Source: Alphaproteobacteria bacterium (GTDB taxonomy: Bacteria > Pseudomonadota > Alphaproteobacteria > RF32 > CAG-239). From it: a stretch of DNA of 46,307 bases. Under the pieces are notes generated by a model, which saw only the letters and a program-made list of their open reading frames with translations, searched no databases and had not been told where the DNA came from. The position numbers and the translations under genes were made by a program. Below, piece by piece: positions 20,682 to 23,788 of this stretch (position 1 is the first letter of the stretch; every line of letters begins with the position of its first letter). Where the stretch lies: contig JAZNSB010000012.1 in assembly GCA_045590955.1 (NCBI GenBank), positions 1-46,307 of the forward strand. Reading direction: 5' to 3'.

Positions 20682-20710
20682 TTGAAAAAAAATAATATAA
20701 ATGATATAAT
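20682..20710 (+). promoter_or_regulatory. sigma70 promoter upstream of the pentapeptide-repeat gene
   Basis: TTGAAA(20682-20687)-N17-TATAAT(20705-20710) with extended -10 TG at 20702-20703. Confidence 0.7.
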
Positions 20711-20736
20711 CTAAGAACTTTTTAAGGAAATGCTTG

Positions 20737-21852
20737 ATGGTAGGGTTCTTTTCAAAATCTAAAAAAAAGCTAATAAAACCATTGACGATGGATATGGTAA
20801 GTGAAGTTCATTGGTCAAGTGTTTCTACAATTAATCAAAATGATGGAAATCCTGACGCAGAAAATTATTCAGGAAAAATTTTAATAAAACAAAGTTTTCA
20901 AAGTGCAAATTTGAAAAATGCAAGTTTTTCTGTAGCAAATTTAACAGAAGCAGATTTTTCAAAAGCAAATCTGGAAGGCGCTGATTTTTCCGGTGCTAAT
21001 CTTACAGGTGTAAATTTTGCCGGAGCAAATCTTTCAGGGGCGGTTTTCAACGGTGCGGTTTTAAAAGAAACAAATTTTACCGGTGCAAATTTGAATGGTG
21101 TCCGCTTAGTTGATGCAGATATTGAAGATGCTATATTGATAGATGCAATTTTAGATGAAATTGCAATTAAAGATTTGCAAGAATTGGTGGAATTTTTGGC
21201 AAAATATTATCCACACAAGCTTAATTTATCTAAATTAAATTTAACAATGCTTGATTTGACCAAGGTTGATTTGACTAAGGTAAATCTTAAAGGTGTGGAT
21301 TTTACCGGTGTTAGTTTTGTGGGAATAAATATATATGAGCTTGATTTGAGTGAATGTGTTATTACTCCGCAACAAATAGAACAAGCCATTGGACATAAGC
21401 CAACTCCGGAAGAATTAAAAAAGATTTTAGCACCTAAACCAAAGCCGAAAGCTTCAAAGCCGCAGTCTGTGGATTTAACATCTATGTTTTATGATGATGG
21501 TTCCGAATTTGGAATGATAAATGCTTGGAAATATAAAGGTTTGGATATTACTAAGCAAATGTTTATTGGAAAACAGGTATTTAAAGACGGAGCCAAAAGG
21601 CCAGAGCAAAAAAATGAACAAGAAGGTGAATCTTTAATAGATTCCAAAGAAATGGCAAAAAGACAGGCAATTAAAAGCAAAATAGAAAAAAGAAAAGAAG
21701 AAGAACGCATTTCAAGACAGCAAAAGAAAAATGAAGTTGAACAACAAATGCAAGAAAAAAAACAAGAAAAAAGCAGTAGAGATGACTTTGATGAACAAAT
21801 AAAACAAAAAATCAAGGACTTTAATTTTAGAGGTAAGGAACGTGATTATTGA
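20737..21852 (+). CDS. Pentapeptide-repeat protein with charged C-terminal tail
   Basis: ANLKNASFSVANLTEADFSKANLEGADFSGANLTGVNFAGANLSGAVF... then a second block NLSKLNLTMLDLTKVDLTKVNLKGVDF; E/K/Q-rich tail. Confidence 0.92.
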   Translation: MVGFFSKSKKKLIKPLTMDMVSEVHWSSVSTINQNDGNPDAENYSGKILIKQSFQSANLKNASFSVANLTEADFSKANLEGADFSGANLTGVNFAGANLSGAVFNGAVLKETNFTGANLNGVRLVDADIEDAILIDAILDEIAIKDLQELVEFLAKYYPHKLNLSKLNLTMLDLTKVDLTKVNLKGVDFTGVSFVGINIYELDLSECVITPQQIEQAIGHKPTPEELKKILAPKPKPKASKPQSVDLTSMFYDDGSEFGMINAWKYKGLDITKQMFIGKQVFKDGAKRPEQKNEQEGESLIDSKEMAKRQAIKSKIEKRKEEERISRQQKKNEVEQQMQEKKQEKSSRDDFDEQIKQKIKDFNFRGKERDY

Positions 21853-23665
21853 AATACTGTTTTTATCATTTGTTGCAGCAAGCGTTCTTTTGTGCCTTAG
21901 ATTGGTAACTTTTATAAAAAAATGTTCTCGTGATGATGCTGTATATAGGCATTTTGCAGAAGAAAAAGATGTAGAAAAAATCGGACTTTTTTCCGGAACT
22001 AAATTTAGGATTGGTTATTTTTTCGGTAAGAAAATCAGGCTTACAGATTCATATCCTTTATTGTTGTTGGGTAAAATAGGTACAAAAAAAACTTCTGCGG
22101 TGGTGGTTCCTAATATACTTGAAAGTAAAAAAAGCCACATGTTTATTGTGGATGAAAAGGGTTCTGTGGCAAGATATACAGCAAGATACAGGAACTCTTT
22201 GGGAAAGACTACAATTTTTGATTGGGACCTTTTGGACAATAAAGATATGTTTGCAAAGTGGAATCCTATGGATGAGCAAAACTTGCCCCAGGATGAAGTT
22301 TTTAGGCAAAAATATATCCAATGTATGGTCAAGGGTTTGTTTTATAATACCAACATCAACCAAGACAAAGAAGATATTTATTGGCAAACAATGGCTGAGA
22401 ATGTTTTAACGGGAATTATGTTTTTTAACATCCAAAGGGTAAAGCAAGCTTGCGCAAATGACTATTTTTTGGAAAAACTTATAAAAGATTTACCTTTGTC
22501 AGAAAATGATAAGCAGATTTTGAACAGTTATTATCAAAATATGCCGGAAAGGTATGTGGCAAAGATTAAAAAACAAATTAAAACACACTCAATAACAATT
22601 AAGAATTATGTTCCTATCGGAAGTTGGGCGGGAATTAAAGAGGCCTGGCGAGGAAGAGAGCTTTCACTTCCAATGATTGCTGATACTTTATACCAAGATT
22701 ATTATGATGCAGAAGCAGATAATGAAGCAAAAATAGTGCAAAATATATTGTATAGATATATGGAAGAGGCAAATTTATTTGCTTATGATTTTGATTACAG
22801 AAAGTATTTTGCAGAAGTTTTTAATATGAGTGAACTGCAATCAAAGGTTTTGTTCGGAAAAATTTTGCAAGCGTTGGCGGTGTTTAAGCAACAGTCGATC
22901 AGAGAAAGATTGTCAGATAATGATTATTGTATGGCAGATATGAGTAAAAAATCTGATGAAAAAATTACGGTGTACAACATAACCAAAAGTAAAAATGCAA
23001 AAATAATTGGGCGAATCTTTACGGATTTGCAGATGATGTATTGCATTTATGCTAGAGGCGAGCAAGATCAAAGTTCGGTATTTGTTTTGGATGACGTAGT
23101 TTTGTTGCCTAAATTAAATTTTCTGACAGAAGCTTTAATGCGGGGACAGTATTACGGAATGCGCTTTTTATTATCTGTCAGAGATTTGAGATTGTTATAT
23201 TATTTGTATGGAAAAGATGATGTGGAATCTATAGTGGCAAATACACCGCATAAGTTGTTGTTTGGAGAAAATGCTGAAGATATATTGTCAAATTTAAATG
23301 GTTTGACCAAATTTGGAACAAAGTCAATTCAAGTACAAAAAACAGAAATTTTATCATTGCTTAAAAATAAAAAAGCTTTGAATGATTCTGCTTATTATAA
23401 AAGAGTGGCATGGTATTTTGAAAAGATTATTAAAAAGAACGTTTGGAACGCAGAAAAGTTTTTGTTTATGCATTCTCAATACTATCATCTGCCAATTTTA
23501 TGTGATAAACGAAGCTTTATTAAAGACGAGTATTTATATGAAAAGAGTCTTGGTGAGTTTATGTGTCAGGTGGATTATGAAACAGTAAAAAATAGAAAAG
23601 AAAAATCTTTGACAGTTCCATGTTTTGAATATAAAACAGAAAAAACAAAACAAAAGCCAAAATAA
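21842..23665 (+). CDS. VirD4/TraG-like type IV coupling protein, motif-degenerate (GTG start; possible frameshifted extension to 23772)
   Basis: N-terminal TM; LLLLGKIGTKKTSAVVVPNIL (Walker A region), FIVDEKG, KWNPMD, YWQTMAENVLTG, VFVLDDVVLLPKL...ALMRGQYYGMRFLLSV...LYGKD..ESIVAN (TraG-D C-terminal pattern). Confidence 0.82.
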   Translation: MIIEILFLSFVAASVLLCLRLVTFIKKCSRDDAVYRHFAEEKDVEKIGLFSGTKFRIGYFFGKKIRLTDSYPLLLLGKIGTKKTSAVVVPNILESKKSHMFIVDEKGSVARYTARYRNSLGKTTIFDWDLLDNKDMFAKWNPMDEQNLPQDEVFRQKYIQCMVKGLFYNTNINQDKEDIYWQTMAENVLTGIMFFNIQRVKQACANDYFLEKLIKDLPLSENDKQILNSYYQNMPERYVAKIKKQIKTHSITIKNYVPIGSWAGIKEAWRGRELSLPMIADTLYQDYYDAEADNEAKIVQNILYRYMEEANLFAYDFDYRKYFAEVFNMSELQSKVLFGKILQALAVFKQQSIRERLSDNDYCMADMSKKSDEKITVYNITKSKNAKIIGRIFTDLQMMYCIYARGEQDQSSVFVLDDVVLLPKLNFLTEALMRGQYYGMRFLLSVRDLRLLYYLYGKDDVESIVANTPHKLLFGENAEDILSNLNGLTKFGTKSIQVQKTEILSLLKNKKALNDSAYYKRVAWYFEKIIKKNVWNAEKFLFMHSQYYHLPILCDKRSFIKDEYLYEKSLGEFMCQVDYETVKNRKEKSLTVPCFEYKTEKTKQKPK

Positions 23666-23788
23666 AAGAGCCGAAACAAAAAAATGCATCTGATGTAGAG
23701 GGAGATTGGTGGTTGGATGAACAAAATTTTGAAAAAACACAAACAATAAATAAAATAAATCCGTTTTCTTAGATGAAAGTGATAAATA

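Follow-up and report, generated by a model that had tools for sequence, protein, structure and literature searches.

Coupling proteins choose what type IV secretion systems (T4SSs) export, and the substrates of VirB/D4 systems usually show an Arg-rich basic C-terminus, as in the signals of Agrobacterium. The type IV coupling proteins (T4CPs) of the VirD4/TraG/TrwB kind (PF02534) include TrwB (structures 1E9R/1E9S) and Cagbeta of the cag T4SS of Helicobacter pylori (8DOL). The cagZ gene adjoins cagbeta in the cag island. CagZ is a dedicated partner of Cagbeta, and the title of entry 8DOL states that CagZ regulates the Cagbeta ATPase. The rvh system of the Rickettsiales is a P-type T4SS that is vertically inherited in reduced alphaproteobacterial genomes, lies in several islands and has duplicated components. 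It duplicates VirB4, VirB6, VirB8 and VirB9 and is not known to have more than one VirD4. Pentapeptide-repeat proteins such as the DNA mimics Qnr and MfpA and the T3SS effector PipB2, as well as the pentapeptide region of DotG/IcmE, form a right-handed quadrilateral beta-helix with a net acidic surface.

The locus described here brings two of these protein types together. It lies in a 46,307-nt stretch of DNA (the window), which is contig C12 (JAZNSB010000012.1) of the 1.2-Mb, 99%-complete assembly of an alphaproteobacterium of the CAG-239 family. In the window, a gene for a pentapeptide-repeat protein (PRP) runs directly into a gene for a protein of VirD4/TraG fold (D4L). The reading to which we give even chances is that PRP and D4L are an ancient pair that would form an accessory receptor or adaptor arm of a dispersed, chromosomal and apparently non-conjugative T4SS that is core to the family. 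Literature searches for a pentapeptide–T4CP pair, for degenerate T4CP paralogues and for T4SSs of these gut Alphaproteobacteria found no description, and the PRP–D4L arrangement is undescribed in the literature searched.

D4L shares with the VirD4/TraG/TrwB T4CPs the fold and an N-terminal membrane anchor, and the genome also encodes a VirB-type channel, with which D4L may work. It differs from them in being a second paralogue that carries DD in Walker B throughout its clade, in being unlinked to virB or relaxase genes and in always following a pentapeptide-repeat gene. In the window copy, moreover, the P-loop Gly has become Lys, the first transmembrane (TM) helix and its loop are gone, and the acidic tail is out of frame. 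Cagbeta, as solved in complex with CagZ, is the best structural match of D4L; unlike D4L, it is the sole and active T4CP of its system. CagZ is small and helical, unlike the beta-helix of PRP; the analogy with PRP is one of function only and homology is not expected. The system of the window genome resembles rvh in being chromosomal and dispersed. Unlike rvh, it has duplicated its T4CP, and it is further set apart by a giant beta-flower VirB10 of 1,888 aa and by the SPOR domain of its VirB9. PRP shares the beta-helix and acidic surface with Qnr/MfpA, PipB2 and DotG. None of those proteins has its inserted helix, its conserved but disordered segment, its long, basic helix of coiled-coil-like character or its Arg/Gly C-terminus.

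The pair and its two proteins

The PRP gene occupies positions 20734-21852 of the forward strand (372 aa; TTG start, with an ATG one codon further), and the D4L gene follows at 21842-23665 on the same strand (607 aa; GTG start). In the open reading frame (ORF) listing of the window the two frames share 11 nt, GTGATTATTGA. Immediately 5' of this overlap lies GGTAAGGAA; the D4L start has a ribosome-binding site. A candidate sigma-70-type promoter, found as a motif match at 20682-20710 on the forward strand (TTGAAA-17-TATAAT with an extended -10 TG), stands within the 56-nt spacer 5' of PRP and matches 11 of the 12 consensus positions. Sites of equal quality number 75 genome-wide (1.2 Mb, both strands), 18 of them having the TG, and the chance expectation of such a promoter in the 56-nt spacer is about 0.002. 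The count of promoter-like sites across the region shows no excess over shuffles. The two genes are separated by gaps or overlaps of 0-30 nt in orthologs. This spacing, the 11-nt overlap and the rare, strong promoter candidate 5' of PRP speak for coupling and co-transcription of the two genes, as in the reading given even chances above.

The original prediction, made from the letters of the window, had named both the near-consensus promoter and the 11-nt overlap between a pentapeptide gene and the GTG of a coupling-protein gene. The ORF listing and the rarity of the promoter genome-wide agree with it. Its assignment of D4L to the VirD4/TraG proteins also stands, since the Pentapeptide, T4SS-DNA_transf and TraG-D_C profiles all match and the predicted fold of D4L agrees.

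PRP is a true pentapeptide-repeat protein that falls outside the Qnr, MfpA, PipB and PipB2 families. It matches Pfam Pentapeptide (PF00805) at 2.9e-31 (107 bits) in a profile search. The NCBIfam models of the four families score far under their cut-offs, which places PRP outside them: 47 bits against 240 for Qnr, 41 against 360 for MfpA, and 57.6 against 274 and 49.8 against 354 for PipB and PipB2, where the repeats alone match. The AlphaFold2 (AF2) model has a confident beta-helix at residues 44-140 (predicted local distance difference test, pLDDT, 83-96). The right-handed beta-helix extends over about residues 44-215, where a conserved helix at 142-158 interrupts it and a second beta-helical part runs to about 210. 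Residues ~241-299 are conserved in sequence yet predicted to be disordered. A long basic helix of 60 residues (305-365) follows and leads into an Arg/Gly-rich C-terminus. In orthologs the beta-helix has an acidic net charge of -8 to -16, and the region C-terminal to it is basic. A conserved Arg/Gly motif closes the protein (for example RGRDGR or RGQRERG, and FRGKERDY in the window copy), and RGR-type motifs are retained in genomes with and without D4L. The top Foldseek matches of the model are PRP structures including MfpA and Qnr; among the PDB matches is DotG, a T4SS component with pentapeptide repeats.

D4L matches T4SS-DNA_transf (PF02534) at 8.4e-20 and 71.5 bits (cut-off 20.1), TrwB_AAD_bind (PF10412) at 2.6e-10 and TraG-D_C (PF12696) at 6.8e-5. 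An AF2 model built on 33 relatives (pLDDT 84.8, predicted TM score 0.85) shows a nucleotide-binding domain and an all-alpha domain behind one N-terminal TM helix. Foldseek places this model nearest to H. pylori Cagbeta (8DOL; E 3e-14) and TrwB (E 1e-9), with TM scores normalized to the target of 0.6-0.69, followed by HerA, DotL and VirB4. A sequence profile of the D4L clade reaches Cagbeta at 1e-9. A phmmer search of the PDB with the D4L sequence alone gave no match, so that Cagbeta and TrwB are reached solely by profile and fold searches. D4L as a replacement for FtsK was considered and rejected, because a 761-aa FtsK is encoded on contig C3.

The catalytic motifs of D4L have changed. Its Walker A motif, GKIGTKKT (G77-T84; 22070-22093, forward strand), has Lys82 in place of the Gly before the catalytic Lys. 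It thus departs from the GxxGxGK[ST] pattern, which almost every ortholog preserves, as does the main VirD4, the intact T4CP encoded elsewhere in the genome. Its Walker B motif, VFVLDD (V413-D418; 23078-23095, forward strand), has Asp in place of the catalytic Glu. This second change is a property of the whole clade, in which Walker B reads hhhhDD apart from two DG copies; the main VirD4 and a third, PRP-linked clade read hhhhDE. The two-TM N-terminal anchor with a periplasmic loop is also absent from the window copy. Because Walker A, Walker B and the anchor all fail, the window D4L is best described as a degenerate T4CP paralogue that would not be a working coupling ATPase. The original prediction missed both the degenerate Walker B of the clade and the erosion of this copy.

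Secretion genes, coupling-protein clades and relatives

The ORF listings of the window hold no virB genes; no profile search of the window was made for relaxase, integrase or transposase. The pair had accordingly been predicted to be an orphan, kept apart from any conjugation locus. The first point stands within the window and fails genome-wide, where virB2, virB3 and virB4 (C28), virB9, virB10 and virB11 (C19) and the main VirD4 (C37) are found on three other contigs. The second is not upheld, because the genome has a dispersed T4SS. The main VirD4 (739 aa) is intact and its profile scores (132 + 49 bits) are better than those of D4L. It likewise adjoins no channel gene, and for this reason the non-adjacency of D4L to channel genes is uninformative. 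The orphan label is an artefact of viewing one locus. Taken together, the genes make up a complete, chromosomal and apparently non-conjugative T4SS in at least four islands. Given an intact main VirD4 in the same genome, D4L is a second coupling-protein paralogue.

A tree of 95 relatives, read together with the motifs, separates three clades. The main VirD4 proteins form the first clade (PPGTGKT and hhhhDEF), which has short branches and always follows an unrelated membrane protein of ~415 aa. D4L proteins form the second (GxGKT and hhhhDD), with long branches and a preceding PRP. The third clade, from other metagenome-assembled genomes (MAGs), has SGKT and ILDEF and is preceded by a PRP of 346-586 aa at a gap of 2-3 nt. 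Its chromosomal context differs, with PGI upstream and AddAB downstream. A deep-branching protein of 1,022 aa, L034, has a DD Walker B and is likewise preceded by a PRP. The main VirD4 was also present in all six of the clade iii or L034-type genomes examined. An early duplication of the T4CP produced a conserved main VirD4 with canonical Walker A and B and a PRP-linked paralogue. Because all six genomes also hold the main VirD4, the duplication and the linkage to PRP are older than these families. The catalytic Glu of Walker B was lost in the D4L lineage of the CAG-239 family. D4L evolves several-fold faster than the main VirD4 and is still under purifying selection in most genera. That unrelated chromosomal contexts, two in all, have kept PRP and the T4CP as a pair is the strongest indication that they function jointly.

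The closest proteins to D4L are 29-34% identical and ~780 aa long, and all of them come from gut MAGs of uncultured Alphaproteobacteria, with humans, ruminants, rabbits and other animals as hosts. The block TruA–(oxidoreductase)–SPOR lipoprotein–PRP–D4L–RarA–RluC–AsmA is found in about 26 species representatives. Identity to the window is ~75% for RarA, ~57% for RluC, ~55% for TruA, ~49% for PRP, ~35% for AsmA, ~30% for D4L and ~28% for the SPOR lipoprotein. D4L thus ranks with the fastest-changing genes of the block, and most orthologs are still intact ORFs of ~780 aa. The ratio of nonsynonymous to synonymous substitution rates (dN/dS, NG86) was taken from nine pairs of close orthologs. It spans 0.07-0.13 in D4L (0.072 in the pair that is least saturated, dS 0.54), 0.03-0.10 in PRP, 0.06-0.14 in the SPOR protein and 0.03-0.045 in RarA. 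The PRP–D4L module is therefore under purifying selection in relatives. The prediction of a domesticated module gains support from the conserved synteny, the pair being inherited vertically, and the neutral dN/dS near 1 of a decaying fragment is not seen.

A family survey of 24 genomes, nearly all of different genera, showed how unevenly the two genes are kept. PRP is present in single copy (45-52% identity) in 23 of the 24, and the exception is a genome that is 59% complete. VirB4 is single-copy in all 23 of the adequately complete genomes. A D4L ortholog is present in 14 genomes and missing in 10. In nine of the ten D4L-less genomes the gene is precisely excised and PRP directly abuts RarA; in one example, position 5656 is both the end of PRP and the start of RarA. 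On a RarA and PRP tree (FastTree, midpoint root, approximate) the genomes without D4L belong to at least three lineages. D4L thus appears to be dispensable and to have been deleted in several lineages. This weakens the predicted pair of coupling protein and cognate substrate as an obligate one, since PRP is universal and single-copy and D4L is cleanly absent in ten of 24 genera.

The window genome, which at 1.2 Mb is smaller than any other of the family, still bears D4L in an eroded form. Compared with orthologs, its D4L lacks about 100 N-terminal residues, namely the first TM helix and the periplasmic loop, so that the second helix alone is left. Upstream of the GTG the frame stays open over no more than 13 codons. 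No remnant of the N-terminus occurs in any frame, including under the 3' end of PRP, and a hidden N-terminal exon there is therefore rejected. Conservation at the P-loop position of Lys82 reaches 85% or more among orthologs. The Gly that it replaces is retained in nearly all aligned orthologs and in all main VirD4s and is lost otherwise only in the eroded L117. The window D4L keeps 62% of the clade positions conserved at 85% or more, against a clade median of 95%. In the same genome RarA keeps 86% of its conserved positions, PRP 79% and the main VirD4 94%. Comparable erosion is seen in two other lineages: L117, of 693 aa, no longer has the P-loop, and L118, of 621 aa, has lost its C-terminus and reads DG in Walker B. 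D4L genes in intact, eroded and deleted states, all with PRP kept, make up a natural series that can be used to find the role of D4L, and the window represents its eroded stage. The window genome is the sole species of its genus and all orthologs of its D4L are ~30% identical, so that the dN/dS values refer to relatives.

The C-terminal tail of D4L is encoded out of frame. The conserved tail, ending in GDWWLDEQNFEKTQTINKINPFS, lies at 23635-23772 (forward strand) in the -1 frame and continues past the TAA of the main frame at 23663-23665. The change of frame falls in an A-rich stretch with an A6 run at 23640-23645. With ortholog C-termini as queries, tblastn matches 23638-23769 in the -1 frame at E values down to 1e-6, and this tail fits the clade consensus DWWxxExAF…NPF. 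Because the motif is intact and 46 AT-rich codons of the -1 frame contain no stop, the frameshift is very recent, an assembly error or bypassed. A canonical X XXY YYZ slippery heptamer for -1 frameshifting was looked for by eye and rejected, since the A6 run is out of phase. Slippage of a single tRNA(Lys) on this run may at most be possible, and programmed frameshifting seems unlikely. Inside the out-of-frame tail, a promoter-like site for rarA (TTGAAA-16-TAAAAT, ten of 12 positions) is present at 23729-23756 on the forward strand. The tail DNA may be partly retained as the rarA upstream region.

Role of the pair and competing explanations

If PRP and D4L are an accessory arm of the T4SS, D4L would no longer be a motor. 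It would act at the inner membrane as a receptor or adaptor, either nucleotide-binding or nucleotide-independent, that binds PRP. PRP would be docked by D4L as cargo, or would regulate a T4CP in the manner of CagZ and Cagbeta. Binding of PRP by D4L fits the acidic, DNA-like beta-helix and basic Arg-rich C-terminus of PRP, a combination common among VirB/D4 substrates, and the acidic-aromatic tail of full-length D4L. In the window genome D4L appears to be reduced and eroding, with one TM helix, a broken P-loop, a frameshifted tail and conserved positions lost. Where it is lost or eroded in this way, PRP probably either depends on the main VirD4 or works by itself. If true, a hydrolysis-impaired paralogue kept under purifying selection beside one PRP would be an unusual case of a pseudo-ATPase receptor with a dedicated partner. 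The pair is found throughout a group of uncultured gut Alphaproteobacteria with reduced genomes, from humans and ruminants, and a core T4SS in these bacteria suggests close interaction with other cells.

Several points weigh against an accessory arm of this kind. Both the binding of PRP to D4L and the secretion of PRP are inferred from the sequences. The exchange of Glu for Asp in Walker B is not strict proof of lost hydrolysis. The frameshift in the tail could be an assembly error, and a 607-codon frame that stays open in a genome of 33% G+C and gives a confident fold suggests that D4L is still selected. D4L cannot be an obligate partner of PRP, because PRP and its C-terminal motif persist where D4L is gone. 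Lastly, phyletic patterns cannot link PRP to the T4SS, as every member of the family has both.

An explanation that overlaps with the accessory arm, and that we consider rather doubtful, is that D4L in the window genome is already a functionless relic heading for deletion, with PRP and the main VirD4 being what matters. The truncated N-terminus, the change of Gly to Lys in the P-loop and the frameshifted tail speak for it, as do the low share (62%) of clade-conserved positions kept and the similar erosion of L117 and L118. The ten genera without D4L and the small size of this genome, the smallest of the family, also agree with it. A relic, however, would hardly be expected to keep 607 uninterrupted codons in AT-rich DNA and a confident AF2 fold, or a start that is translationally coupled to PRP, overlaps the PRP stop and has a ribosome-binding site. 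An open frame at ~30% identity to orthologs argues for constraint over a long time. Since the tail motif is intact in the other frame, the shift is very recent, an error or bypassed.

An unlikely alternative is that the pair belongs to a module with no need of the T4SS. PRP, the SPOR lipoprotein and a membrane ring derived from VirD4 would then form a separate envelope or division-site machine, or a DNA device beside RarA. The SPOR lipoprotein gene lies upstream at 18953-20677 (forward strand) and encodes 574 aa with the lipobox LLNAC, long helices and a C-terminal SPOR domain. The SPOR match of the window protein is 2.3e-4, and ten of 15 orthologs match SPOR. The gene stands 5' of PRP in about 24 D4L-bearing loci and is absent from most D4L-less loci. 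This frequent neighbour, the conserved synteny with RarA, the loss of the catalytic Glu and the fact that the pair never adjoins channel genes all favour an independent module. Adjacency is uninformative, however, because the main VirD4 and the remaining islands of the T4SS lie just as far apart from one another. The VirB9 of the T4SS itself has a SPOR domain, FtsK is present, and VirB4 occurs in every D4L genome that can be judged. The SPOR protein also carries no TolC/OEP signal in sequence profiles: 15 orthologs gave no OEP match at E<=1, and a PDB profile search returned no TolC chain, so a likeness to TolC/OEP lacks support at the level of sequence profiles. Co-occurrence with D4L is imperfect, since L115 has the SPOR gene without D4L, and L117 and the L014/L036 group have D4L without the SPOR gene. 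The SPOR lipoprotein is therefore a frequent, non-obligate upstream companion of the pair.

A further proposal, to which we attach little probability, is that the PRP-linked T4CP paralogue would be a dedicated receptor for a DNA-mimicking cargo. A T4CP lineage with a past in DNA handling would then hold or deliver an acidic beta-helix of DNA-like shape, either through the unusual T4SS with its giant beta-flower VirB10 and SPOR-anchored VirB9 or, together with the SPOR lipoprotein, as an envelope device independent of the T4SS. The motor would have been traded for nucleotide-gated docking.

It is very unlikely that PRP is a DNA mimic of the Qnr/MfpA type acting on gyrase or another DNA enzyme, with the adjacency of D4L being historical and functionally meaningless. 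The beta-helix is acidic and of MfpA/Qnr size, PRP is universal even without D4L, two neighbours (RarA and RecX) have DNA-related roles, and one relative has gyrA close by. Against this, the Qnr and MfpA models reach only 47 of 240 and 41 of 360 bits, and the 150-aa C-terminal extension of PRP is unlike Qnr and MfpA. The recurrence of a PRP–T4CP pair at 2-3 nt spacing in an unrelated context of another lineage also argues that the adjacency has a meaning.

A fragment of a recently acquired, decaying conjugative element, which a VirD4 homologue without adjoining virB genes and the erosion of the window copy might suggest, is refuted by the family-wide synteny and by a dN/dS of ~0.1 in relatives, and also by a G+C (0.32-0.33) equal to that of the flanks, by near-absent plasmid relatives (four weak matches among 72,556 plasmids, at 21-27% identity) and by the lack of PF03432 and PF08751 relaxases in the 99%-complete genome, other relaxase families not having been searched.

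Neighbouring genes and components of the secretion system

The neighbours of the pair in the window are housekeeping genes: RecX, TruA, RarA, RluC and AsmA. Orthologs of the SPOR lipoprotein share two invariant C-terminal cysteines and many invariant aromatic residues, and no family is detectable in them beyond SPOR. In loci L107-L113 and L116, which have neither D4L nor the SPOR lipoprotein, a co-oriented ORF of ~420-450 aa stands 5' of PRP. The idea that this ORF of ~430 aa is a shortened SPOR lipoprotein was rejected, as it does not match a hidden Markov model of that protein.

The channel genes are distributed over two contigs. At C28:21212-26651, three tandem VirB2/TrbC-like genes (119, 111 and 604 aa) are followed by VirB3 and VirB4; the third VirB2/TrbC-like protein has a long C-terminal extension. 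Contig C19 encodes a VirB9-like protein (509 aa, C-terminal SPOR), a 1,137-aa beta-flower/RHS-repeat protein, beside it the VirB10 of 1,888 aa (C19:15851-21517, reverse strand), and VirB11. This VirB10 carries about 16 beta-flower repeats (PF21785/PF21784) followed by a TrbI domain, which makes for an unusual core. On contig C37, two paralogous membrane proteins of 415 and 159 aa are encoded at 16111-17884 (reverse strand), directly 5' of the main VirD4. A homology between PRP and the ~415-aa protein, which would have made the two T4CP loci a duplicated two-gene unit, was rejected at an hhalign probability of 0.1%. The 415-aa and 159-aa proteins belong to no Pfam family, are unrelated to PRP and have in common a W.FDIF…W motif and a TM helix at the N-terminus. 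An ORF of similar size (~410 aa) stands 5' of the main VirD4 in all relatives.

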